A DNA stretch of 26,326 nt, taken from IMG/VR virus record IMGVR_UViG_3300027007_000013; one strand, 5' to 3'. Both the position numbers and the translations under genes were made by a program. The notes under the pieces were generated by a model. The model did no database searches and was not told where the DNA came from. It worked only from the letters and a program-made list of their open reading frames with translations. Position 1 is the stretch's first letter. The number at the start of each line of letters is the position of its first letter. Of this stretch, positions 2,340-25,930 are shown piece by piece. The DNA is from a virus (lineage: Duplodnaviria > Heunggongvirae > Uroviricota > Caudoviricetes).

Positions 2340-2413
2340 GCCGGGAGGGCCCGCCTGGTGCGGGCACGTGGCTGTTACCCACGAGGCGCTTGGTTCGAGT
2401 CCAAGTCCCGGCG
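2340..2413 (+). tRNA. tRNA-Asn(GTT), non-canonical D-arm
   Basis: Acceptor GCCGGGA/TCCCGGC, anticodon stem CGTGG/CCACG, GTT at 2374-2376, T-loop TTCGAGT, discriminator G. G8 and a 5-bp D-stem GCCCG/CGGGC. Confidence 0.85.
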
Positions 2414-2494
2414 CCTTCGAGTATCAGAAAAACGAAACAACTAATATAGCATCACGTCAAAGGTAGAATACCCAAAATGGTAAGAAACATGATA

Positions 2495-2569
2495 GGGCTT
2501 GTAGCTCAGTCAGGCGAGAGCAGTCGACTCCATATCGACCGGTCGGGGGTTCGAATCCCTTCGAGTCCA
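2495..2569 (+). tRNA. tRNA-Trp(CCA), intronless
   Basis: Canonical cloverleaf: GGGCTTG/CGAGTCC, GTCGA-CTCCATA-TCGAC, anticodon 2530-2532, TTCGAAT. Confidence 0.92.
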
Positions 2570-2664
2570 CTGGGACCACATCGCGGCAAATCGCACGGTC
2601 CCGCTAACGATGAGGGTCGCCTGGGGAGGTGACACGTCGTTCGGGGGCCCCCACGATCCCTCAA

Positions 2665-2738
2665 TGGCACATAGTTCAGTCTGGAAGAACGTCCGGCTCA
2701 CATCCGGGCGGTCCCCGGTTCGAATCCGGGTGTGCCAA
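2665..2738 (+). tRNA. tRNA-Val(CAC)
   Basis: TGGCACA/TGTGCCA (U1-A72), anticodon CAC 2699-2701, CCCGG-TTCGAAT-CCGGG. Confidence 0.9.
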
Positions 2739-2871
2739 TCCCCGAAGACCCGGGCCTATCCGGTGACGGGGTCTGCGGCCCTGCTCGAGAGTCGCTAATG
2801 CTTGCGGGCGAACGCGGCCCGTGGGAAAGGCACAAGAGCCAATCGAGAAGGGGGAGCGATCCCCCATCCGA

Positions 2872-2943
2872 GTGCCCGTAGCTCAGTGGTAGAGTCCCTC
2901 CTTTGCAAGGAGGTCGCCCGGGGTTCGAATCCCTGCGGGTACA
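2872..2943 (+). tRNA. tRNA-Ala(TGC)
   Basis: GTGCCCG/CGGGTAC with the G3:U70 alanine identity pair; anticodon TGC 2904-2906. Confidence 0.95.
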
Positions 2944-3029
2944 CTGCGACACGGTGATCGACCCCTGCGCTCCGGCGTACAGATCGACACATCGACAGCG
3001 CCCACGGTGGGAAGTACGTGACACGTCCA

Positions 3030-3075
3030 GTCCTAACTAATCTGTCGGAGCAGACCGTCGGAGATTAGTTAGGAC
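3030..3075. repeat. 14-bp perfect AT-rich inverted repeat in a tRNA spacer
   Basis: GTCCTAACTAATCT (3030-3043) and AGATTAGTTAGGAC (3062-3075), 18-nt loop. Confidence 0.85.
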
Positions 3076-3080
3076 ACGGT

Positions 3081-3155
3081 GGGTCGGTAGCTTAGCCTGC
3101 GCAAAGCGTTCGGCTTTTAACCGAATGACCGGGGGTTCGAATCCCTCCCGACCCG
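3081..3155 (+). tRNA. tRNA-Lys(TTT)
   Basis: GGGTCGG/CCGACCC, TTCGG-CTTTTAA-CCGAA, anticodon 3116-3118. D-loop AGCCTGCGCA lacks the usual GG. Confidence 0.92.
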
Positions 3156-3305
3156 TGGGGCGGTTTGTCTCTGGCCGCTGAGCTCGGTAGTCCCGAACCA
3201 CAAAAGAATCCCAGAGGACGTTGAGTGGACGATCACTCGCGAGTACGCGGGGAGGACGCTTCCCGCAATCAACCCTCATAGTCGGGTATCCCCCGACTTG
3301 CCTAT

Positions 3306-3378
3306 GGCTTCGTAGCTCAGTCGGTAGAGCCCTCGATTTGTAATCGAGAGGCCGGGAGTTCGATCCTCTCCGAAGCCT
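3306..3378 (+). tRNA. tRNA-Thr(TGT)
   Basis: GGCTTCG/CGAAGCC, anticodon TGT 3339-3341, U73. Confidence 0.95.
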
Positions 3379-3385
3379 TCTGACT

Positions 3386-3458
3386 CCGTTCGAGCTCACG
3401 TGGGAGTGAGATACGACTGTAGATCGTACCGCTCCAGGTTCGAATCCTGGCGAACGGA
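3386..3458 (+). tRNA. tRNA-Tyr(GTA), non-canonical D-arm
   Basis: C1-G72 and A73 (archaeal Tyr identity), anticodon GTA 3419-3421, short variable loop. A8 and a 5-bp D-stem CTCAC/GTGAG. Confidence 0.85.
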
Positions 3459-3510
3459 CTCGGGGACCGCGGCTCGGTTGATCCATCATCTCGACCGAGC
3501 AACTCCCCGG

Positions 3511-3643
3511 AGTCGATGCTGATCTCTGAGCGGCATCCGAAGACATGATCGACGGAGTCCCGTTTAGTGTCAGGCGCCGTGGGTAACTGATTAGTAGCAG
3601 CCTACCCTGGCGCCGGGCTTTTCACGCGGCTTCAGCATCGACT
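3511..3643 (+). ncRNA. Candidate structured RNA (multi-branch, 12-bp closing helix) inside the tRNA array
   Basis: AGTCGATGCTGA/TCAGCATCGACT encloses arm 1 (GACAT/GTGTC plus GACGG/CCGTT) and arm 2 (GGCGCC/GGCGCC plus GGGTA/TACCC plus CTG/CAG). Confidence 0.5.
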
Positions 3644-3650
3644 TTCAGCT

Positions 3651-3726
3651 GCTCCAGGAGTCTCCGCTGGCGAGAGATGCCTGACTTTCAATCAGGTGGC
3701 CGTCGGTTCGATTCCGACCTGGAGCA
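3651..3726 (+). tRNA. tRNA-Glu(TTC), non-canonical D-arm
   Basis: GCTCCAG/CTGGAGC, CCTGA/TCAGG, anticodon TTC 3687-3689. G8 and a 5-bp D-stem GTCTC/GAGAT with loop CGCTGGCGA. Confidence 0.82.
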
Positions 3727-3807
3727 CTCGCGCCCATGCCCTGTGGCGCACGAGATCGAAGTAATGGGGTAGCATCGTACGATGACCGGGTGTGCACCCA
3801 CCCTTAC

Positions 3808-3878
3808 GCGTCAGTGATCCAACGGCAAGACAGGAGCCTTCCAAGCTTCAGATCTCGGTTCGATTCCGAGCTGGCGCA
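3808..3878 (+). tRNA. tRNA-Gly(TCC)
   Basis: GCGTCAG/CTGGCGC, A73, anticodon TCC 3840-3842; weak D-stem. Confidence 0.88.
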
Positions 3879-4072
3879 CTGGGGCTGACATCCCAGTACC
3901 ACTGTCCGGCCTATACTCGTGAGCGGCCGAGAAATACCACGAGGGGGTACACCGACCCGACGTAAGAACTGGTAGACGACGATCGCGAGCGGCCTCGAAC
4001 CGATCACCGGGTGCGTTGCCAGCGCACTTCGCAGGTGGCGGGCCACACCTATAGGTCGCGATCTTCGCACGC

Positions 4073-4149
4073 AGTCTCCGGCGCTGCACTGGCGAGCGGC
4101 GACCAGCCTTTGGAGCTGGCGGAGATGGGTTCGATTCCCTCGGAGACTA
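4073..4149 (+). tRNA. tRNA-Gln(TTG), non-canonical D-arm and bulged T-stem
   Basis: A1-U72 acceptor AGTCTCC/GGAGACT (archaeal Gln type), CCAGC/GCTGG, anticodon TTG 4110-4112. 5-bp D-stem GCTGC/GCGGC; T-stem GA(T)GGG/CCCTC with one bulged base. Confidence 0.72.
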
Positions 4150-4198
4150 TCAGGGGCGTTCAACACCGGTAGTAGCCGGTCCCGTTGCGCCCCGCTGT

Positions 4199-4270
4199 GC
4201 CGATGTGGTGTAGTGGCTAACATCGGACCCTGTCACGGTCCGGTCTCGGGTTCGAATCCCGACGTCGGCG
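4199..4270 (+). tRNA. tRNA-Asp(GTC)
   Basis: GCCGATG/CGTCGGC, G73, anticodon GTC 4232-4234. Confidence 0.95.
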
Positions 4271-4335
4271 TGGGGTTGAGTTGCCCCAACTGTAGGCATG
4301 CCGGGCGTTGGCCGGCCCGATATCCACGGCCACGC

Positions 4336-4406
4336 GCTCCTGTGGTGTAACGGAAACATTGTGCCCTCTCGAGGCGCAGCTCGGGGTTCGATTCCTCGCA
4401 GGAGCA
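4336..4406 (+). tRNA. tRNA-Glu(CTC)
   Basis: GCTCCTG/CAGGAGC, anticodon CTC 4368-4370, canonical U8/A14. Confidence 0.93.
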
Positions 4407-4407
4407 T

Positions 4408-4483
4408 AGTCCCGCGGCGTCTGCTGGCGAGACGTGCCGGCCTCTGGAGCCGGAGATCGAGGGTTCGATTCCCTCCGGGACAA
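4408..4483 (+). tRNA. tRNA-Gln(CTG), non-canonical D-arm, A1/A72 mismatch
   Basis: (A)GTCCCG/CGGGAC(A), CCGGC/GCCGG, anticodon CTG 4444-4446. C8 and a 5-bp D-stem GCGTC/GACGT with loop TGCTGGCGA. Begins 1 nt after tRNA-Glu(CTC). Confidence 0.78.
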
Positions 4484-4504
4484 GTTCCCGTACGTTGGGT
4501 ACGG

Positions 4505-4645
4505 GTGTGGGAGACGATCGAGATCGCGACCCGCAAGCAGATCATCGCCCTGGCCGTGGTACTCATCATGGTTGGTGGCGTCATGTTCGGAGGTATAGGT
4601 CTGGATGAACAGAGTGGTTTGGATGAGCCCGCATCGCGCCCATGA
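4505..4645 (+). CDS. Single-pass membrane microprotein (46 aa) within the tRNA array
   Basis: GTG start; MWETIEIATRKQIIALAVVLIMVGGVMFGGIGLDEQSGLDEPASRP has RK followed by a ~20-aa hydrophobic helix and an acidic tail; fills the only unstructured spacer of the array. Confidence 0.6.
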   Translation: MWETIEIATRKQIIALAVVLIMVGGVMFGGIGLDEQSGLDEPASRP

Positions 4646-4677
4646 AATAGTTTGAAAGGGCTCACCGACAGCTACGT

Positions 4678-4751
4678 GGCCGGACTGGTCTAACTGGTTA
4701 AGATTCAGCACTGTGACTGCTGAGAACCGCGTTCGAGTCGCGGGCCCGGTC
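4678..4751 (+). tRNA. tRNA-His(GTG)
   Basis: Genome-encoded G-1 opposite C73; CAGCA/TGCTG; anticodon GTG 4713-4715; one acceptor mismatch (A6/C67). Confidence 0.88.
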
Positions 4752-4808
4752 CTCCGTCAGGTAAATCCACGAACTACATAAAAGTTCGAGGATTTGGCTT
4801 GACACAGA

Positions 4809-4883
4809 TGGGCGATAGCGTAGCTTGGTTATCGCGCGTGCCTTGGGTGCACGAGATCGCAGGTTCAAATCCTGCTCGCCTAA
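4809..4883 (+). tRNA. tRNA-Pro(TGG)
   Basis: TGGGCGA/TCGCCTA, CGTGC/GCACG, anticodon TGG 4844-4846, GCAGG-TTCAAAT-CCTGC. Confidence 0.9.
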
Positions 4884-4958
4884 TGGACTGTGGCACGGGT
4901 CATACGTCCTTCCCGTAGGACACGTATCCTACGGACCATACGGAACAGACACCTCCCC

Positions 4959-5387
4959 ATGTCCACGACAAAGGAGCGACCAGACAACGGTGGGCTGGTC
5001 TCAGTCGGTCAGTCAGAATCGCGCACGAAACACGTAGACGCCGCGCTTGTCGAATCATTTGCGGCGGTCACTGGAGATGAGAATCCGCTCCACCTCGACG
5101 ACGATCACGCCGCCGAGACGATGTTCGGCGAGCGGATCGCCCACGGGATGATCACGGCCGGACTGGTCAGCGCCGCGCTGACGGACCTGGTCGACCCCGA
5201 GGTGGCGACGGTCGTCTACCTCTCACAGACCCTCGAGTTCCAGAAGCCAGTCTACGTCGACGACGAGCTCACTGCGACGGTCGAGATCGTCGAAGATCTC
5301 GGTGGGAGTCGCTATCGACTCCGTACGTATGCAGAGACAGACGTGTCCGTTGTCGATGGTGAGGCGGTGATCTTACTCTCGACATAA
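4959..5387 (+). CDS. MaoC-like (R)-specific enoyl-CoA hydratase (PhaJ type, hot-dog fold), 142 aa
   Basis: Signature FAAVTGDENPLHLDDDHAAETMFGERIAHGM (catalytic Asp/His) and YLSQTLEFQKPVYVDDELT. ATG at 4959 chosen because the longer ORF starts only 6 nt after tRNA-Pro and runs through a hairpin. Confidence 0.92.
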   Translation: MSTTKERPDNGGLVSVGQSESRTKHVDAALVESFAAVTGDENPLHLDDDHAAETMFGERIAHGMITAGLVSAALTDLVDPEVATVVYLSQTLEFQKPVYVDDELTATVEIVEDLGGSRYRLRTYAETDVSVVDGEAVILLST

Positions 5388-5398
5388 CGAACGGACGC

Positions 5399-5474
5399 GC
5401 CCCTGTAGCTCAGCCAGGACAGAGCAGCGGCCTTCGAAGCCGCGTGATCGGGAGTTCAAATCTCTCCAGGGGCT
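5399..5474 (+). tRNA. tRNA-Arg(TCG)
   Basis: GCCCCTG/CAGGGGC, GCGGC/GCCGC, anticodon TCG 5434-5436, A20 in D-loop. Confidence 0.95.
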
Positions 5475-11473: not shown

Positions 11474-11604
11474 ACGACGGAGTGGAACAGGCATGGCGAC
11501 TCTACCGTGACAGGAACGTTGTCGTCGGAAAATACCGAGCCGAGATCGCGGAGCGACGGCGGCTGATGATGGAATGGCGGAAAGAAGGAGAACCCCTGAG
11601 ATGA
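11470..11604 (+). CDS. 44-aa basic helical microprotein coupled to polB
   Basis: MNDGVEQAWRLYRDRNVVVGKYRAEIAERRRLMMEWRKEGEPLR; its TGA overlaps the polB ATG (11601). Confidence 0.55.
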   Translation: MNDGVEQAWRLYRDRNVVVGKYRAEIAERRRLMMEWRKEGEPLR

Positions 11605-14156
11605 AACCCCTCCTGATAACACAGATAGACTACACGAACGAGGAGGTCCGTGGTGGTGAGCAGGTGCCGGTCATGCACATTTTCGGTCGGGACGCGGAGA
11701 ACGCAGTCCACCGGGCCGATGTCTACGACCACCGGCCGTACTTCTACGTCCCTGTCGAGGAGACGCACAAACCAGACTTCGGGTCCGAGGAGATTGTCTC
11801 CGTCGAGCCCGGTTACACATCGATCAGGGGGCGTGACCTTGCTCGCGTGTACACGCACACGCCCAGCGAAGTCGGAAAGATCAGAGACGACTATGAGCAC
11901 TACGAGGCCGATGTTCTGTTCCCCAACCGGCTGATGATCGACTACGAGATCAAAGCCGGGGTCATGGTCCCCGACGAGGGGACCCACCACACGTTCGACT
12001 CGCCGGAGGAGCTCGAACCATGTGACCCACCTACGTCGGCATCGATTCGAGTACACCACGTGGACATCGAGGTTGAGGACCGACACGGCTTCCCCGAGGA
12101 CGGCATCGAGCCCATCGTTTGTTTCACCACTTTCGACTCGTACGACGAATGGTATATCGTATGGTGGTGTAAGGAACACGCCGACCAGGAGCTCGACCCT
12201 GATCGAAAAGCGGAACTGCTCGCTGACGAGGATGCTGGCGATGTCGAGCTCCGAACTTTCGAAGACGAAGCGAAGATGCTCGACGAGTACCTCTCATACA
12301 TCGAGGAGACCGATCCAGATCTGTTCACGGCATGGAACATCGGCTTCGACATGCCGTACATCTGTGACCGCCTTGAACGGCTGAACGAGAAGTGCATCTG
12401 GAACCTCGACATCGAACGTCTCTCCCGACTCGACGAGGTGTGGAGCGGTCGCGACTACCCGAATCTGAAGGGGCGAGTCGTCTTCGACCTGCTCCAGGCG
12501 TACAAGTTCACGCACTTCAGCGAGGAGGAGTCGTACCGGCTCGAAGCCATCGGTCAGAAAGTGGTCGGCTTCGGCAAGGAGACATACGTCGGCAAGATCG
12601 GCGACCTGTGGGAAGAAGACCCCGACCGACTCCTCGAATACTCGCTGAAAGACGTCGTCCTCACTGTCGAGATCGATAAAGAGACAGAGACGATCGACTT
12701 TATCGACTCACTCCGCCAGTTCGTCGGTTCGCGCATCGAGGACTCGACGGTCGCGAACGAGATCTGCGACATGTACGTCCTGCACAAGACGCACGGGCGA
12801 TTCGTCCTCCCGTCGAAAGGTGCAGGAAGCGATGGGGACTACGAGGGGGCGGCCGTGTTCCCACCGATCTCGGGTGTCGAGGAGAACGTGGTTGTCACTG
12901 ACCTGAAATCTTTGTACCCGATGTGCATGGTGACGATGAACCTGTCGCCGGAGACATCGGTCGATCCCGACGAATACGACGGCGACACCTACGTCGCGCC
13001 CAACGGGTTGCACTTCCGCAAAGAGCCGGATGGAATCATCCGAGAGATCGTCGACGAGCTCCTGTCACGACGAGAGGACCTGAAAGCAGAGCGTAACACG
13101 CACGACCCCGATTCTGATTCGTACAAGCGTCTCGACCGCCAGCAGGTAAGTGTCAAGGTCGTGATGAACTCGTTATACGGAGTGTTAGCTTGGGATAAAT
13201 TCAGGCTGTATGACAAAGATATGGGAGCCGCTGTAACGGCCACAGGACGCGGAGTAATCAAGTTTACCGAGGACGTGGTGAACGAACTTGATTATGAAGT
13301 GACATATGGCGACACGGATTCCGTCATGATAAGTCTCGGACATGAAGTGTCCAAAGAGGAGGCTATCGACATCGGATTCGAGATTGCCGAAACGATCAAC
13401 GACCGCTACGACGAGTATGCGGCCACGCTCAACGCCGACGACCACCGCTTCCAGATGGAGTTCGAGAAACTCTACAAGCGATACTTCCAGGCCGGTAAGA
13501 AGAAACGATACGCTGGCCACATCGTGTGGAAAGAGGGCAAAGACGTCGACGACATCGACATCACGGGCTTCGAGTACAAGCGGTCCGACACCCCGCGTTT
13601 CGTGAAGGAGACGCAGAAGACCGTCCTCGACAAGATCGTCCGAGGTGCGGATACGGACGAGATCCGAACGTACGTGAAAGGTCGCATTGACGAGGTAAAA
13701 GCCGAAGAAGTACCACTCGACGAGATCGGGATTCCTGGTGGCATCGGGAAGAAACTCACTTCGTACAACCCACCAGGCGTCCACGTTCGGGGTGCGATCT
13801 ACGCAAACCTCCTACTCGGCAAGAACTTCGGCAAAGGGTCGAAGCCCAAGCGTGTCTACCTCGAGCGTGTCCTCGAACGGTTCTACCACAAGATCGAGCG
13901 CCGTCGCAAATGGGAGCTCGAACGATCCGACTGGTACCGCCAGTTCCGACAGGAGGTCGCGAGTGATGATGACACCGAAGGGGCGATCTGCATCGAGTAC
14001 CCCGAGGACCTCCCGGAGGAGTTCATCGTCGACTGGGACCGCCAGCTCGACAAGACGCTCCGAGGGCCCATCGAGCGTGTGACAGAACCGCTCGGCCTCT
14101 CCTGGGATGAGATCGAGACAGGACACGAGCAGACTGGATTGGGGGCCTGGTCATGA
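11601..14156 (+). CDS. polB: Family B DNA polymerase, haloarchaeal PolB1-like, intein-free (851 aa)
   Basis: Exo I DIEVE, Exo II AWNIGFDMPY, Exo III LEYSLKD; Pol A DLKSLYP, B KVVMNSLYG, C YGDTDS; KKKRYAG and GFEYKRSD; RPYFY in the N-terminal domain. Confidence 0.97.
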   Translation: MKPLLITQIDYTNEEVRGGEQVPVMHIFGRDAENAVHRADVYDHRPYFYVPVEETHKPDFGSEEIVSVEPGYTSIRGRDLARVYTHTPSEVGKIRDDYEHYEADVLFPNRLMIDYEIKAGVMVPDEGTHHTFDSPEELEPCDPPTSASIRVHHVDIEVEDRHGFPEDGIEPIVCFTTFDSYDEWYIVWWCKEHADQELDPDRKAELLADEDAGDVELRTFEDEAKMLDEYLSYIEETDPDLFTAWNIGFDMPYICDRLERLNEKCIWNLDIERLSRLDEVWSGRDYPNLKGRVVFDLLQAYKFTHFSEEESYRLEAIGQKVVGFGKETYVGKIGDLWEEDPDRLLEYSLKDVVLTVEIDKETETIDFIDSLRQFVGSRIEDSTVANEICDMYVLHKTHGRFVLPSKGAGSDGDYEGAAVFPPISGVEENVVVTDLKSLYPMCMVTMNLSPETSVDPDEYDGDTYVAPNGLHFRKEPDGIIREIVDELLSRREDLKAERNTHDPDSDSYKRLDRQQVSVKVVMNSLYGVLAWDKFRLYDKDMGAAVTATGRGVIKFTEDVVNELDYEVTYGDTDSVMISLGHEVSKEEAIDIGFEIAETINDRYDEYAATLNADDHRFQMEFEKLYKRYFQAGKKKRYAGHIVWKEGKDVDDIDITGFEYKRSDTPRFVKETQKTVLDKIVRGADTDEIRTYVKGRIDEVKAEEVPLDEIGIPGGIGKKLTSYNPPGVHVRGAIYANLLLGKNFGKGSKPKRVYLERVLERFYHKIERRRKWELERSDWYRQFRQEVASDDDTEGAICIEYPEDLPEEFIVDWDRQLDKTLRGPIERVTEPLGLSWDEIETGHEQTGLGAWS

Positions 14157-17638: not shown

Positions 17639-20600
17639 ATGCCCACGACTGACCTGTACCCCGACTCCGAGCTCGCTACCACCAACCTCTCTGGGTCAGT
17701 CTCGAATCTCCAAAACGACGATACAGCGTCGTGGTACACGGCCAACGATGCCACGTCAGATACGGCCCTGCGCGTCGGCTTCGATAATCCGCCATCGGCG
17801 CTGACCGGAACGCAGACAATCGACGTCTACGTTCGGCGAACGAATAACTCGAACAAGGAGCCGACGGTCACTGTCGAGCTCTACGAGAACGGCTCGCTCG
17901 TTAGCACACTCGCATCGAACGTCGCCGTCACGTCGACAACTGGCCAGACCCTTTCGTACACGTTCGCTGACACCGCCGTCTCGAACGCCGATAACGTCGA
18001 GATCCGTGTGGCCGGGTCGTCGTCGGGCGGGAACCCGAATCAACGGAACACTGTCGAGGTCGGCTACGAGACATGGACGGCCTCGATCGAGCTTGTCGGA
18101 GGGGTTGCCGACGTTGGAACGCTCTCTGTCACGGCAAATGAACCGACCGCGTCCGGTGGCATCCAGTACGGTTGGAAAACAATCGAGTCGTTCGAGGATC
18201 AGTCACTCTCAGAATACGATATCGGAGATACAAGCGCGTTCGGGATCGCTTCAACCCAGAGTATCGACGGGAGCTACTCCCTCGAGGGGACAGGTGGCTC
18301 CTCAACGTGGGAAGGTATTGCGTCCACCACAGGATTAGATGAGTACATTCCGTATGAGTCGGAATTTCGTGCCCGAGTCAGAGTTTCGAGCGCAAACGAC
18401 AGGCTTCTCTTACGATTTGCAACCCCCGACGCTGACAACGTCATCCTCGCTGGTGCGACTGGAACGGGCATAGAGATATCCCGGTCGCTTGCTGGCTCAT
18501 GGTCACAAGTGAGCAGTGCGTCGATGACGTTTCCAACTGATGAGTGGCTCATATACCACCTCACGTGGGGACTGGCTGGCGCTAACGTTGTCGAGCTCAC
18601 GGTCTATGATTCAACGGAAACTGAACTGGCAAGTACGAGCGCAACCCTCGAAAGTGACTTTCAGGCGTGGGACGGGTTCGGGTACCAGTACACCTACCAG
18701 TACAGTGGGACTGGTCCTGGCTACTTCGACAACGTTGAGCTCTGGGGACAGCTCGCGTCGTCGCAGACCGCAACGGCCGACGTCGCCTCGGTCACGACCA
18801 GCGCACCTTCGCCGACAGCGTCCACCACAACGACGGGCGACACTGCGACCGCCGATCTCGGCGGAATAACCGTTAGCGCCCCGTCCCCCACGGCAACGAA
18901 TGTCATCTCGGCGCCTGTTTCGACGCTCTCGGCAACGATTGCCGGACAAGACCCGACAGTCGACGGTGGGGCGACGACGGCGACGATGGATGCGGCGTCT
19001 ATCAGCGTCACTGGACAGGACCCGTCGATCCCAAGTGTCGCGACAACGGTGACAGCAGACCTCGGGTCGGTCACGGTCGCTGGACAGGATAGCACAGTTA
19101 CCCCCGGCGACGTATCGGTGGCGACGACCGAAGGGACGCTCACGTCGACGGCTCAGGACGTAACCGCCACTCCTGGTACCGTATCGGCCGGCGCTGACGT
19201 CGGGCAAACGACAGTCACTGCAATCGACACGAGTGCGAGTGCCGGAGCGACAACATCCTCGATGGAGACTGGTACGCTCTCACTCTCACTACCACCAGTA
19301 ACGAGTGGGAGCACTCGTGCAGTCAGTGCAGACGTGGGGGTCGTCTCGGTCACGGGACAGGCGGCGACCGTACAGGCCGGCGCTCACACGCTCACGATGG
19401 ACGCTGGGACGGCCACGGCCTCTGGCATTGACCCGAGCGTCGCGCCCGGTGAGTTCACGGCTACTGTCGACGTGGCCTCGGTCACCAGCGTCGCACACGA
19501 TGTCACGGCGACTGCTGGAGCGACGAGCGCCACAGCCGTTGCTGGTGGTATCGCTCTCTCTGGCGTTGAGCCATCTGCTTCGAGCGGGGTGGTGGCACAG
19601 ACATCGACCGTTGGTGGGGCGGTTACTGCACCCGACCCATCGGTAGCGACCGGAGGTGTAACAGCACAGGCCGCCGTCGGTGAAGTGACTGTTACTGGCC
19701 AGGACCCGGTCGCGACGCCCGGGAGTGTTTCCCCAACGGCTGACGTGGCACCCCTCGATGTCAGCGCACAGTCGCTGGGTGCGACACCGGGTACTGTCAC
19801 GGCCAGCAGTGTCGTCGGCGACCTCGCGCTCAGTAGCGCCGACCCGAGCAGCACGCCCGGCGACGTTTCACCGACAGCTGACGTTGCGACTACCACGCTT
19901 GTTGCCCTCGACTCGACGGTTACTACCGGTGGGTCGACAGCAACTGTTGACACTGGCGTCCTGACCGTAAGTGAGGAGGAAGTGTCCGTCGCCGGTGGTG
20001 CAACGGTTGCGACGACAGATACAGGCACTCTCAGTGTTACCGGCCCGAGTCCGTCGACGGCTCTTGGGACTGTATCCATCGGGGCTGACCTCGCGGACAT
20101 TGCGACCACCGGGCACGATGTGGCGGCCACACCTGGGACAGCAACAATTGCGGGAGATACTGGCGAGTTAACGGTCGACGTCCCCGGATTCGTCACTGGG
20201 AAATCGATACTCGTCGAGGCGGATACGGCGTCGATTACCGTCACTGGGGAGGATGTGACGACAACGTCTGGCGGCGTCGGGGCGACGGCGGGACACGCGA
20301 CGGTGAGCGTCGAGGCGATCGACCCCACGGCCGCTCCGACAGGGAGTGCTCCCGTTGCCGCGGACGTCGGCGAGATCTCGACGACAGCGAGCGATGTCAC
20401 TGCGACGGGGGGCTCGACCTCAGCGACGGTTGACGTTGCAAGCGTTTCGGCGACAGCGCCGGATGCGTCGATTGATGCTGGCGGCGTTGTGACGGCGACG
20501 GCTACTACCGGTGTCGTTACGGTCGCTGGCATCTCGGCCGGGGCGGTGCCTGGGGAGGCCACAGTCACCACTGATAGTGGAATCGTCACCTCGACTGCGG

Positions 20601-23578
20601 CCGATCCATCGATCACACTGGGTGAAGTTGTCGCGAGTGCGAGCGAAGGGGTCGTCTCTGTCGCTGGCCTCGACGCTACGACGTCGGTCGGTGAATCAGT
20701 TGCCACGGCCGATACAGCCACGCTCGCACTCTCGGCAATCGATGTCGCTGGGTCGAGCGGCGTGGTCATTGCGACATCGACCCTTGGCGGGACGGTTACC
20801 GCACTCGACCCCACCACTGACGGTACAGCAACGGCGACCATGGAGGCCGCTACCGTCTCCGTCTCGGCACCCTCGCCAACGACGGGGACGGCCTCGTCGA
20901 TATCGACGCAGACGATCACGTCGTCGGTTACAGCGAACGATGTGAGTGCGACCGGTGGGGCGACGACAGCAACCGCCGAGCAGGGGACTGTCACGACCAC
21001 GGCCCTCGAGCCGACGGTCGCGGTAGGCGACACCCCAACGGTTGTGTCTGTCGGCGCGATCACGCTCTCTGCGCCGTCTGTGACAGCGACGGCTGGCGGC
21101 GTGTCCGCTGCAACGGACGTCGGCGAGCTCTCGGTCACTGGAGCTGACGTTTCGACCGACGGTACCCGAACGATCACAGCAGACGTTGCCACGCAGACCG
21201 TGACAGCCCCCTCCCCGGCCGCAGTTCCCGGTGGAGCGTCGGTGTCGACGGATGTCGCGTCGGTCAACGTTTCCGCACAGAACACCACCACATCGACCGG
21301 GCCAACGACAGCAACTGGAACGGTTGCTGACCTCTCGGTGTCTGGTGTCGACCTCAGTGCCTCGTCTGGCGGATCGATCGTCTACACCAGTACCAAGACC
21401 GCAACCGTCACCGCCCAGGACCCCTCGGTGTCGGTCGGTGAGGCCACGGCGGTCGCTGACACGGGTGCGATTGCCGTCTCCATCCCGACGCCAGGGGTTG
21501 GAAGTGGCGTCATAGCCGCAACGGCCACTGTGGGTGGAACGGTCACCGCCCAGGACCCCACCACCGCAGTCGGCGCCACCTCTGCAACGATGGATGCTGG
21601 GACGATCTCTGTCTCGGCAATCGAGCCCGGCGCTGTCTCCGGTATCATCGCAGCCACGTCGACCGTCTCGGGGACGGTCACCGCCCAGGACCCAGCAGTC
21701 ACCGGGACGGGCTCGACTACCGCAAGTGCCGACGTTGGTTCGATCACAGTTGCTGGCCAGGACGCCGGTGCGTCACCTGGAGAGGCTACCGCGACGCAGA
21801 CTGTCGCGACCCTTTCCGCTTCTGCGCCGGGCCCCGCAGCGACCTCGTCCACTACGGTCACAGCTGACACTGGCGCAGTCGCGGTGGCCGCCACCGACCC
21901 ATCGATCGCCTTCTCGACTACAGTGGATGCGGACGAAGGTGTGCTCACGGTCGCGGCACTCGACGTCGTCACCCTTCGAGCCGACTCGACTCTACTCGAT
22001 GTCGGGACGATCACGGTTGCCGCCCCTGAGCCGACAGCATCGCCAGGCGGCGTCACTGGTGGTGGTGAGACAGCGACCGTCGCCGTGGCGGCCCCGGGCC
22101 CAACAGCGACTGGTGGCCCGACGTCTGCGACCGCAGCGACGGCAACTGTCACGACGGTTGCCCCAGATGCGACAGCCGTTGGTGGCCCGACGACGAGTAC
22201 AGCCGACACGGCGACGCTCGCGACCACTGTACCAGCCCCAGCCGCGACTGCGACGTACACAGTGGGTGCTGAGGTCGGGGCACTCGCGACGAGCGCCGTC
22301 GACCCGGTCGCGTTTGGAGATCGCATCACATCGGCCACGGTTGGTGAACTGTCCGCCAGCGCCGCCGATCCGACGGTCGCCGTCGTAACGACGGTCGCCG
22401 TCGACGAAGGAACGCTCTCGTCCACCGCACAGGACCCATCGGTTGCACCCGGCGGCGTCACTGGTGCTGTCGAAGTGGGCACGCTCACGACGGCTGCGCC
22501 AGACGCTGGTCTCGTCCTTGGGACGGTGTCGGTCACAACCGACCATGCTGCACTCGGTGTCAGCGGTCAGAATGCCGGGGCGGCACCGGGTGGTGTCTCA
22601 CCCCTCGCCGACCCGGGTACGCTCACGACCGTTGCGCCAGACGCCGCCCTGACCCCCGGTGTTACACCCGTCACTGTCGAGTCGGGGACACTCGCCACCA
22701 CGGCACTCGACCTGGATGCAGTTGGCGGACCGACGACCGGCACTGCTGAGACGGTCGAGCTCACCCTCACCAGCATCGATAACGATGTCCTGCTCGGAGA
22801 CACCCCGGTCGAGATGGACGTCGGCGGCCTGGCCGTCGCCAGCCCGGCGCCAGCAGCTCTCCCCGGAGTGGTGAGTAACGAGGCCGACGTTGGAACGCTT
22901 ACGACAGCAGCCGTCGAGCCAGGTGTTTCGGCTACGTACACCTCGATAGCCGATACTGGCGACCTCGCGGTCGGGAGTGTCGACCCTGGTGTACTTGCCA
23001 CCAACACGGTCGGTATGGGCCACGCGGAACTGATGGCCACGGCGCCTGCGGCCGGAATCGATCCGGGCGTAACGCTCGTCGATGTGAGTGAGTCCAGTAT
23101 CGACGTCACCGGACCGGAACCGGCGGCCCTCCCTGGTGGCGTCGACCTGGCGATGACGGACGGGACGCTCGCAACGACCGTTTCAGAGCCAGGCGTTCAC
23201 GCAATCGCCACCCTCGGCGCAGACGTGGGGTCGCTTCAGACGACCACCCCGAGTCCCGAGTGTATCGGCGGCCCGACGAGCGCCACAGCCGCGGCGGCCA
23301 GCGTCTCGACGAGCGTCCCCGGTATCGGATACATGGCCTGGGACCAGTTCCCCGGCGCGACGGCGGCCAGCGTTACCGTCTCGACACCGATAATCGACAT
23401 TCCCCAGGTCGACATCGAGAAAGTCGGTCTCGACGGCGGGCACGCACAGAGTATCACGCTGGACGGACTGTTCGACCCAGATGACACGGCGCTCGACAGC
23501 GAAGATGCTCAGATCGTGTCCCTGGAAGGAACGTTCGACGCCACCCACATTACCCTTGAAGGGAGGTACGACCCATAA
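17639..23578 (+). CDS. Giant repeat fibre/filament protein (1979 aa): two N-terminal beta-sandwich domains, ~23-aa T/A/V/S/G/D repeats, short C-terminal domain
   Basis: SD GGAGGAG; residues ~1-150 and ~180-370 globular (second one lectin/LamG-like); residues ~375-1925 are quasi-repeats of consensus TATADVGSITVTAQDPSVTPG; C-terminal ITLxGxFD repeats. Confidence 0.85.
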   Translation: MPTTDLYPDSELATTNLSGSVSNLQNDDTASWYTANDATSDTALRVGFDNPPSALTGTQTIDVYVRRTNNSNKEPTVTVELYENGSLVSTLASNVAVTSTTGQTLSYTFADTAVSNADNVEIRVAGSSSGGNPNQRNTVEVGYETWTASIELVGGVADVGTLSVTANEPTASGGIQYGWKTIESFEDQSLSEYDIGDTSAFGIASTQSIDGSYSLEGTGGSSTWEGIASTTGLDEYIPYESEFRARVRVSSANDRLLLRFATPDADNVILAGATGTGIEISRSLAGSWSQVSSASMTFPTDEWLIYHLTWGLAGANVVELTVYDSTETELASTSATLESDFQAWDGFGYQYTYQYSGTGPGYFDNVELWGQLASSQTATADVASVTTSAPSPTASTTTTGDTATADLGGITVSAPSPTATNVISAPVSTLSATIAGQDPTVDGGATTATMDAASISVTGQDPSIPSVATTVTADLGSVTVAGQDSTVTPGDVSVATTEGTLTSTAQDVTATPGTVSAGADVGQTTVTAIDTSASAGATTSSMETGTLSLSLPPVTSGSTRAVSADVGVVSVTGQAATVQAGAHTLTMDAGTATASGIDPSVAPGEFTATVDVASVTSVAHDVTATAGATSATAVAGGIALSGVEPSASSGVVAQTSTVGGAVTAPDPSVATGGVTAQAAVGEVTVTGQDPVATPGSVSPTADVAPLDVSAQSLGATPGTVTASSVVGDLALSSADPSSTPGDVSPTADVATTTLVALDSTVTTGGSTATVDTGVLTVSEEEVSVAGGATVATTDTGTLSVTGPSPSTALGTVSIGADLADIATTGHDVAATPGTATIAGDTGELTVDVPGFVTGKSILVEADTASITVTGEDVTTTSGGVGATAGHATVSVEAIDPTAAPTGSAPVAADVGEISTTASDVTATGGSTSATVDVASVSATAPDASIDAGGVVTATATTGVVTVAGISAGAVPGEATVTTDSGIVTSTAADPSITLGEVVASASEGVVSVAGLDATTSVGESVATADTATLALSAIDVAGSSGVVIATSTLGGTVTALDPTTDGTATATMEAATVSVSAPSPTTGTASSISTQTITSSVTANDVSATGGATTATAEQGTVTTTALEPTVAVGDTPTVVSVGAITLSAPSVTATAGGVSAATDVGELSVTGADVSTDGTRTITADVATQTVTAPSPAAVPGGASVSTDVASVNVSAQNTTTSTGPTTATGTVADLSVSGVDLSASSGGSIVYTSTKTATVTAQDPSVSVGEATAVADTGAIAVSIPTPGVGSGVIAATATVGGTVTAQDPTTAVGATSATMDAGTISVSAIEPGAVSGIIAATSTVSGTVTAQDPAVTGTGSTTASADVGSITVAGQDAGASPGEATATQTVATLSASAPGPAATSSTTVTADTGAVAVAATDPSIAFSTTVDADEGVLTVAALDVVTLRADSTLLDVGTITVAAPEPTASPGGVTGGGETATVAVAAPGPTATGGPTSATAATATVTTVAPDATAVGGPTTSTADTATLATTVPAPAATATYTVGAEVGALATSAVDPVAFGDRITSATVGELSASAADPTVAVVTTVAVDEGTLSSTAQDPSVAPGGVTGAVEVGTLTTAAPDAGLVLGTVSVTTDHAALGVSGQNAGAAPGGVSPLADPGTLTTVAPDAALTPGVTPVTVESGTLATTALDLDAVGGPTTGTAETVELTLTSIDNDVLLGDTPVEMDVGGLAVASPAPAALPGVVSNEADVGTLTTAAVEPGVSATYTSIADTGDLAVGSVDPGVLATNTVGMGHAELMATAPAAGIDPGVTLVDVSESSIDVTGPEPAALPGGVDLAMTDGTLATTVSEPGVHAIATLGADVGSLQTTTPSPECIGGPTSATAAAASVSTSVPGIGYMAWDQFPGATAASVTVSTPIIDIPQVDIEKVGLDGGHAQSITLDGLFDPDDTALDSEDAQIVSLEGTFDATHITLEGRYDP
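18760..23400 (+). repeat. Degenerate intragenic tandem repeat (~69 nt, roughly 60-70 units)
   Basis: Recurring ADxG...V(T/S)...DP.. units by eye; exact 17-mer GTCACCGCCCAGGACCC at 21407, 21542 and 21677. Confidence 0.85.
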
Positions 23579-24124: not shown

Positions 24125-25930
24125 ATGTCACAAGAACAGAAGCAGAGCCCCGAAGATCGCCTTCAGGTTACGAAGGTGATAGGAGGCCCGGGGACCGGAA
24201 AGACGACGGCCGTTGTTGGCAACCCAGAGCTCGAGATCGACGGGCTGTTCGTCCAGCACATGGACGAGTACAGACTGAGCGACCAGCTTCTGGTGACGTT
24301 CACCAAGGCTGGCGTGGAGGAGGCGGCGGACCGGCTGAAGGCGATGCTTGGTATCCCCAAGAAAGACCTGAAGCAGCAGATCCGCACGATCCACTCCCAC
24401 GCCTACCAGAAGATGGGTGTCGAGAACGGCCAGATGGTATCGTGGCGAAACAAGAAGAAGTGGTGCGAGAAGCACAACCTGGAGTTCGAGTACGACGACG
24501 GGTCGGACGACCTGATGGGCTCCGAGGGCGTCGCTGACGGGAACGCGTTCTTCCAGATCAACGACTGGCTGAACGCACACCGACTCCCACCAGAGGAGCA
24601 CGACCAGTGTCCGGCTGACTGGTCCGGTCGACAGAACCTGGAGATGTTGCTCCACGACTGGAACACGTTCAAAGAGGCGAACGACAAGCTCGAGTTCGAC
24701 GACATGATCGAGGGTGTCGTCGCCGAGTGTGTTTCCGTCCTTCGACAGGGCGAGTTTGGTGACCCAAGTATCGAGAACGATCGCGAGTACCTGGAAAGCT
24801 GTCGCTGGGATGAGAACCTCTCGCCCCAGGCCATCCGGAATCACCCGATGTTCATCGACGAACCGGTCATGTACGTCGACGAGTGCCAGGACCTGACCTA
24901 CCTACAGTGGGACTGGTACCTGTGCCAGAAGCTCGCGTGTGAGAAAGTGTTCCTTGGTGGAGACGACGACCAGGCGATTTACGGATGGGCTGGAGCCGAC
25001 CCCGAGCAACTACTCGGAGAAGAAGGTGACGTCGAGGTGCTGGAAAAGACCTACCGCATCCCTGAGCAGGTGTGGGCGGCCTGTCAGTCCTGTATCGAGC
25101 AGGTCGACGTGAGACAGGACAAAGACATCGAGCCCGTCGACGACGAGGGTGAGTTTATCGCCCTCTCGAACCCGTACCCGGCGGCTGTGTGCGACCACAT
25201 CGTCGAGAGTGACGACGTCCTCGTCCTGTTCAGGGCGAAGTTCCACATCGACGAGTTCCGCAACACCCTGCACGAGCAGGGCATCCCGTACGACAACATG
25301 TCCACGTATGATACGTGGAACGCGTCTACCACGAAACTCCGCGACTGTCTCGCGAAGGTGTGGAACGAGGAGACGCTGGACGCCGACGAAGTGAAGAAGA
25401 TTGTCGACGTGTCGGACGTCGACCTGATCGATGCCGACTCGCCGGGTCTGGTCAAGTACCTCGTCGACGAGCCCGAGTACGAGGCACAGGACGTGCTGGC
25501 GTTCTTCAAAACGCCAATGGACACGCCCACTCAATTCTGTCTCTGGTACCTCGACCGGAACAGTGAGAAGAAGGCTGACTCGGACCTGAACTGGTTTCAG
25601 GCCAAGGCCATCGAAGGCAACCTCCGACACAATCTGTTCGACCGGCGACCGGAGCAGGTTCGCATCGGGACCATCCACTCAGCGAAGGGCAAGGAAGCGG
25701 ACACCGTCATCCTCGGGACCGACTCGACCGGGACGATCATCCGCAACATGGAGTCGAGCTCGGCGGACGTTCCCGCCTACGCGATGTCGGGCGACGTCAT
25801 CTCAGACGAGGAGCGTCGCGTCCTCTACGTCGGGATGAGCCGGGCCAAGCGCAAGCTCGTCATGGCCGAGGGCCTCGTCACCCCGGAGACTACCCTGCGC
25901 ATCAACGCCCTGGTTGGTGGCCCGGAATGA
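24125..25930 (+). CDS. uvrD: UvrD/Rep-family (SF1A) DNA helicase
   Basis: I GGPGTGKTT, Ia VTFTKA, Ib RTIHS, II VDECQD, III GDDDQAIYGWAGA, IV KTYR, V TIHSAKGKEAD, VI EERRVLYVGMSRAK. Confidence 0.93.
   Translation: MSQEQKQSPEDRLQVTKVIGGPGTGKTTAVVGNPELEIDGLFVQHMDEYRLSDQLLVTFTKAGVEEAADRLKAMLGIPKKDLKQQIRTIHSHAYQKMGVENGQMVSWRNKKKWCEKHNLEFEYDDGSDDLMGSEGVADGNAFFQINDWLNAHRLPPEEHDQCPADWSGRQNLEMLLHDWNTFKEANDKLEFDDMIEGVVAECVSVLRQGEFGDPSIENDREYLESCRWDENLSPQAIRNHPMFIDEPVMYVDECQDLTYLQWDWYLCQKLACEKVFLGGDDDQAIYGWAGADPEQLLGEEGDVEVLEKTYRIPEQVWAACQSCIEQVDVRQDKDIEPVDDEGEFIALSNPYPAAVCDHIVESDDVLVLFRAKFHIDEFRNTLHEQGIPYDNMSTYDTWNASTTKLRDCLAKVWNEETLDADEVKKIVDVSDVDLIDADSPGLVKYLVDEPEYEAQDVLAFFKTPMDTPTQFCLWYLDRNSEKKADSDLNWFQAKAIEGNLRHNLFDRRPEQVRIGTIHSAKGKEADTVILGTDSTGTIIRNMESSSADVPAYAMSGDVISDEERRVLYVGMSRAKRKLVMAEGLVTPETTLRINALVGGPE

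Follow-up and report, generated by a model that had tools for sequence, protein, structure and literature searches.

Around the homing sites of mobile introns in yeast mitochondria, conserved genes carry mostly synonymous change within tens of bases of the site, and co-conversion and mutagenic repair are the candidate causes (Repar and Warnecke, 2017, PMC5378118). The locus described here is alike in both respects, but it concerns inteins in archaea and an archaeal virus, takes the form of a deep directional shift towards A/T rather than of SNP density, is stronger at empty pol-c sites and is apparently maintained over time. A second parallel is the WHO/FBA1 system of Torulaspora (Osborne, Monnin, Wolfe, bioRxiv 10.64898/2026.08.13.744650), in which a LAGLIDADG target in an essential gene likewise diversifies, rare amino acids stand beside catalytic residues and synonymous changes can confer resistance (33% of those changes did so). 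WHO elements are not inteins, however, and resistance was measured there whereas here we infer it from sequence; nor did we find a local dS/dN excess in the viral pair examined below. The haloarchaeal polB-a/b/c and MCM inteins share the insertion sites of our locus and have active homing endonucleases (HENs). In the portions of the literature on them that we searched (PMC3024317, PMC4071816, PMC10643990), short co-conversion and invasion-resistant mcm alleles (Pro after MCM-d) are described, resistance is non-synonymous, and we found no report of an A/T-shifted box at empty sites. A wider literature search, with most subscription journals outside its coverage, also found no report of such boxes at haloarchaeal intein sites. 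Naor et al. (PMC3024317) showed that targets on plasmids are cut by the H. volcanii PolB HEN, that homing requires long homology, and that flanking non-synonymous changes lower homing from ~90% to 27%. Barzel et al. (PMC3159444) reported that mutation of all wobble positions is tolerated, and that the H. volcanii PolB HEN homes efficiently into, and cuts, the human POLD1 target. Finally, homing nucleases can harm a competing viral genome that carries the empty allele, as with the PhiPA3 intron nuclease acting against PhiKZ and marker exclusion in SPO1/T4 (reviewed in PMC12908238); a similar conflict may operate here, with the difference that the putative nuclease would be supplied by the intein in the host polB or by a co-infecting virus.

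The window (the whole stretch of DNA analysed, 26,326 nucleotides) encodes an integrase, 16 tRNA genes, a ligase, a family B DNA polymerase (polB) and UvrD. Its PolB is an exact match to protein P0121 and is 55-58% identical to host polB1 and 76-93% identical to relatives on mobile elements. A blastn search of the window against annotated phages gave no match, and tblastn found only haloviral polBs at 32-34%. We regard the window as probably a haloarchaeal tailed virus or provirus because a relative with the same gene order and a 93% identical PolB (L001/L002/G002) encodes a terminase, a portal protein and RNR. The TerL and RNR of that relative contain HEN-type inteins, which shows the lineage to be exposed to homing. 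The window PolB sits in a small mobile clade with L003 (a Halorarum halophilum plasmid), L004/L016 and L015/L017. The family is a mosaic, in that the window joins the L004/L015 lineage in the core tree (support 95/94) but L003 in the N-terminal tree (91/83). Genes resembling TGT/DpdA are encoded in the virus family. An alignment scan of viral contigs and a representative search recovered no further members. One clade member (L014:5001-7565; L004:10001-12565) adjoins housekeeping genes in AT-rich haloarchaeal assemblies and is perhaps a captured viral gene.

Coordinates of the polymerase gene, the AT-shifted stretches and the empty intein sites in the window (a slash marks the insertion point)
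Feature	Position	Strand	Details
Intein-free family B DNA polymerase gene	11601..14156	+	851 aa from called start; ORF opens at 11574; Pfam PF00136 and PF03104
Empty pol-a site DLK/SLYP	12879..12938	+	Insertion point 12908/12909; no AT shift in the window (z=0.0)
Empty pol-b site KVVMN/SLYG, ±10 codons	13140..13199	+	Insertion point 13169/13170
Patch shifted towards A/T at third codon positions (AT3), as first delimited	13146..13355	+	33/70 A/T-ending codons; z=5.1
Stretch between pol-b and pol-c	13200..13283	+	AT-shifted, z 2.4-4.4 in viral alleles; outside any plausible recognition site
Empty pol-c site YGD/TDS, ±10 codons	13284..13343	+	Insertion point 13313/13314; strongest part of the patch, z=4.7
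Second, weaker AT-shifted stretch	13677..13739	+	12/21 A/T-ending codons; no mapped intein site; absent in the 93% relative

The first-pass annotation of this DNA had drawn attention to the patch by counting A/T-ending codons there and in a control stretch of the same gene (11 of 70 at 12420-12629), and both counts were reproduced in frame with the ORF at 11574-14156. The control stretch is low, however; the fair baseline is the whole gene, in which 216 of 860 codons (25%) end in A or T. When codons were shuffled within amino acids and the best window at any position in polB was scored, the scan-corrected p was 0.004 for 70 codons, 0.012 for 50 and 0.12 for 30, the window length having been picked post hoc. 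Taken alone, the patch is thus a real but modest anomaly. Its best-scoring segment covers ~170 bases (13179-13346, 29 of 53 codons A/T-ending). The codons listed earlier as rare are all present (TTA twice, ATA once, GTA three times, AGT twice), and TTA is confined to the patch within polB, but AGT supplies 14% of serine codons in this genome and is not rare. Elsewhere in the window the ligase has no AT3 patch (p=0.9), and UvrD shows a weak rise over its GDDDQAIYGW motif (24926-25045, p=0.03) that is not repeated in the relative. A scan of 38 long ORFs in the relative itself (G002) gave a single interior patch with p<0.002, the one in polB. Synonymous divergence is raised in the second AT-shifted stretch.

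Intein sites were mapped by aligning 128 long, intein-bearing homologues, in which 116 insertions fall at pol-b (13170) and 73 at pol-c (13314). Both sites therefore lie within the patch and the window ORF is continuous through them, as the first-pass annotation had stated. A further site maps to ~12339 in the exonuclease domain, where the window has Ile at +1. At pol-b and pol-c the +1 residues are Ser and Thr, which belong to the Cys/Ser/Thr class, so that either site could host an intein. The fit between patch and sites is nonetheless looser than the 'exactly' first claimed for it: the shift runs on from one site to the other, pol-a is unshifted in the window, the second stretch lies off-site, and the ±5-codon cores are little shifted (2/9 A/T-ending codons at pol-b and 3/9 at pol-c; relatives reach 6/9 at pol-c). 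Compared with intein-flanking host sequence, the ±15 bp cores of the window match at 23.6 (pol-b) and 22.7 (pol-c) of 30 positions, against 24.7 and 22.9 for ordinary empty host alleles, and one intein-bearing host allele (L052) is identical to the window over 21 bases left of pol-b. Several amino acids beside the sites are unusual. At pol-b +6 the window has Ala in place of a Gly found in 209 of 210 host genes; at pol-b -3 it has Val, which occurs in hosts only beside an intein (7/86 occupied versus 0/124 empty alleles); and at pol-a -4 it has Thr in place of Leu, Thr being found in no host allele. The plasmid allele L003 lacks the Gly>Ala change, the Leu>Thr change and the patch. At pol-a, 7 of 8 codons in the 93% relative are A/T-ending. 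The same relative has a Leu>Ile change beside pol-b (NSIYG; L002 codon aligned to window 13173), a residue absent from the 210 host genes.

We found that the same footprint occurs in haloarchaeal chromosomes. The host set comprised 210 chromosomal polB genes, of which 100 bear inteins and 110 do not; the sampling was not random, in that the intein-free genes were the top-scoring matches and 37 genes fall in a single large cluster. With AT3 corrected for gene background and amino acid, and sites taken as ±10 codons, the observed-to-expected ratio was 2.08 at pol-b, 2.62 at pol-c and 1.39 between them, 1.44 at the exonuclease site and 1.05 at pol-a, against 0.64-1.10 at six equally conserved control motifs. 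At z>3 the signal was present at pol-b in 34% and at pol-c in 40% of the genes (controls 0-1%), and in 22 and 31 of 75 clusters, respectively (controls 0-2). Among 25 mcm genes, all but one free of inteins, AT3 is 2.3-2.7 times the expectation over residues 320-360, a segment with two intein sites that were placed from split matches. The polB controls and mcm establish that the shift is specific to homing sites and not a property of conserved motifs in general, pol-a being the weak case; the amino-acid-corrected controls likewise rule out a generic effect of conserved motifs or amino-acid composition. The host boxes run from about -9 to +9 codons (~55 bp) with fairly sharp edges, and AT3 climbs to 72-78% in the empty pol-c boxes of genes whose background is 3-7%. 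At pol-c, empty sites show a stronger shift than their occupied counterparts in 22 of 26 nearest pairs (10 of 13 clusters, p=0.027), whereas at pol-b the two do not differ (27 of 59 pairs; p=0.40 by cluster). The shift at empty sites rises with the intein frequency of neighbours (rho 0.39 for pol-b, 0.16 for pol-c).

In the virus the patch is old. The corresponding region has 35 of 70 A/T-ending codons in L002, 38 in L015 and 41 in L017, over backgrounds of 19-27%; in L003 it has only 6, and in L004, where AT3 is 45% throughout, a patch is not distinguishable. Shared A/T positions (odds ratio 19) indicate that the patch predates the split between the window and L002. The two alleles show 13 AT-GC discordant codons of 65 where 25.5 would be expected under decay (p=0.0008, from one viral pair and a crude two-state model), and the GC-GC clock is normal (4/16 in the patch versus 41/196). 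The viral patch has thus persisted without reverting to GC. Nor does dS rise locally: it is not raised at the intein sites between window and relative (10/36 versus 218/731), and against L004 it is 0.62 in the patch and 0.54 elsewhere. Recent import from the AT-rich L004 lineage can be rejected, since dS in the patch is not lower than in the rest of the gene and the A/T positions are not shared (odds ratio 1.2). No cellular donor was found in 401 halobacterial genomes, in which the best match is 75%. Among the listed matches there was no intein-bearing family member above 63%. Specific rare codons are nevertheless shared in excess between the virus and unrelated host tracts (0.77 versus 0.50 expected; background 0.58), and identical short peptide haplotypes recur in distant host clusters, both of which suggest movement by short tracts. 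By eye, the occupied TerL and RNR flanks of the relative show no AT shift.

Given its position and its recurrence, the patch is very probably tied to intein homing. Our tentative preference is to read it as a HEN footprint at the empty pol-b and pol-c sites, that is, as a resistant allele that may have been carried as a short recombination tract. The virus would replicate in hosts whose own polB often has pol-b or pol-c inteins, and the LAGLIDADG nucleases of these hosts could presumably cut its extra-chromosomal copy; here we infer both the host and the nuclease source. With only ~70-75% identity between the viral polB and host DNA, homing would repair a cut poorly, and the main effect of cutting would be harm to the virus. 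Less cleavable alleles would survive and move as short recombination tracts. Resistance would probably stem from a few amino-acid changes beside the sites together with the cumulative effect of many wobble changes, and a large share of the A/T-ending codons, particularly those between the sites, would have hitchhiked. The direction would follow from the GC3-rich state of the gene, in which most of the available synonymous changes lead to A/T. Four results favour selection on empty alleles: the pol-c contrast, the neighbour-frequency trend, the non-decay of the viral patch and the adjacent amino-acid changes. Counting against the resistant-allele reading are the match of the window cores to intein-flanking sequence, the identity of L052 to the window left of pol-b, the flat dS in the viral pair, the scarcely raised G-C flips among empty host alleles and the equal shift of occupied pol-b alleles, together with the length of the host boxes and of the viral patch, both of which exceed the 14-40 bp sites cited in PMC3024317. 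We also stop short of classing the patch as more than a putative resistant allele, because its changes are not concentrated in the recognition core.

The proposal from which this analysis began, silent-site escape from intein HENs, fared unevenly. Its link to homing sites was borne out (pol-b, pol-c and mcm are shifted, the controls are flat and empty pol-c exceeds occupied), while escape itself is opposed by cores no further from intein flanks than those of ordinary empty host alleles, flat dS, an unshifted pol-a, an equal shift at occupied pol-b and the published wobble tolerance, which extends to the H. volcanii PolB nuclease. In its pure form, with every wobble change selected in place for lower HEN binding, it would account for the position, the pol-c contrast and the retention of A/T codons, and synonymous resistance is documented for WHO6. 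It is, however, very improbable, since the window cores are barely recoded, many A/T-ending codons lie outside any recognition site, and LAGLIDADG intein HENs are reported to tolerate wobble changes (PMC3159444). A neutral homing by-product without any resistance is a stronger contender, although still rather unlikely. Flanks might have been co-converted with inteins between genera and viruses and kept after intein loss, or the large heterology between alleles with and without an intein might locally disable whatever maintains a high GC3, be it GC-biased conversion or selection aided by recombination, leaving codons to drift to ~50% A/T. Co-conversion from outside donors is one of the two causes considered by Repar and Warnecke (PMC5378118), and this account fits the equal shift of occupied and empty pol-b alleles and the specific rare codons that viral and unrelated host tracts share. 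Inteins are moreover AT-richer than exteins (0.23-0.37 versus 0.12-0.19), and the flank excess follows that of the intein weakly (rho 0.25 at pol-b). A two-state estimate from the window/relative counts leaves the GC>AT rate roughly as it was and slows AT>GC about four-fold, which loss of a GC-favouring force also predicts. Against it, a scar or shelter model predicts equality or the opposite of the pol-c contrast, the edges of the boxes are fairly sharp, an imported tract should decay towards GC as the viral tract does not, and the occupied TerL and RNR flanks are unshifted.

Mutagenic cut-and-repair, in which repeated cutting of empty sites lifts the local mutation rate with an A/T bias, has been proposed for yeast mitochondrial introns (PMC5378118). 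Close host pairs do show pS of 0.29-0.33 at the sites versus 0.18 in the background, a difference that is partly compositional, and the apparent GC>AT rate is higher, but in alleles chosen for being shifted, so that this estimate is biased. The sites lack the asymmetry (C>T on the left, G>A on the right) that deamination of resected single strands should leave, the viral pair has no raised divergence, and empty host alleles show scarcely more G-C flips there (0.16-0.20 versus 0.15-0.16), all of which makes this explanation highly improbable. Causes unrelated to inteins are improbable and as a whole largely disfavoured; they comprise chance, CRISPR escape, the avoidance of exchange with host polB by recombination, and an old core recombined in from a relative richer in AT. 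The family is mosaic, with conflicting core and N-terminal trees and an L004 that is AT-rich throughout, AT stretches also occur off-site (13677-13739 and the KKKRY region of the relative), and the single-gene p is modest. Opposed to these points are the patch dS to L004, the unshared A/T positions, the poor best match in halobacterial genomes and the standing of the patch as the sole strong interior one in the related virus. The host chromosomes carry the same pattern, for which reason the escape from CRISPR spacers and the avoidance of recombination with the host gene that had been raised earlier are dropped as general causes; no spacer-like match was seen among the 150 matches listed from the 401 genomes.

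Models of the homing cycle face the standing question of why empty alleles persist beside highly active inteins. The class-wide footprint offers a large natural stock of empty alleles, both shifted and unshifted, and assays suited to them exist in Haloferax. If shifted alleles resist cleavage, resistance has to be added to the intein life cycle, and a defensive role for host inteins becomes possible; otherwise the boxes are markers of short conversion tracts that crossed between genera, or of places where GC-favouring forces have been lost. A bolder idea, which we consider doubtful, is that host polB inteins serve as incidental antiviral nucleases against haloviruses with a host-type polymerase, and that viruses and hosts alike resist through empty sites written in non-preferred A/T codons. 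Were it true, the view that silent changes offer no escape from LAGLIDADG intein nucleases would be overturned, and codon-shift boxes would chart homing pressure, both past and present, across whole genomes.

Several further features of these genomes deserve mention. In L002, the conserved KKKRYAG motif (aligned to window 13491-13538) has been recoded, with 11 of 15 codons A/T-ending, where hosts are unshifted; over a stretch of 20 codons there, 14/19 synonymous differences separate L002 from the window, and the motif is possibly the target of another nuclease. In L017 (224-940) a free-standing HNH gene overlaps the polB start and is followed by ~38 AT-rich polB codons (26/38), which looks like a co-conversion tract. 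Neither the polB neighbours tested nor the annotation of called genes otherwise contained a free-standing homing nuclease. The polB of Salinibaculum rarum (L019, G001:C1:1768871-1772403) appears as two open frames (826 and 208 aa), with the break after motif C. Across the whole window (1-26326) CTAG is absent and GATC occurs 171 times, and a 1979-aa ORF at 17639-23578, with a GC content above the rest of the window and no Pfam or PHROG match, has a 1250-aa counterpart in the relative. Finally, the 16 tRNA genes form an array (2340-5474; nine genes in the relative) with many anticodons for A-ending codons, and it may make A/T-ending codons less costly to the viral genes.
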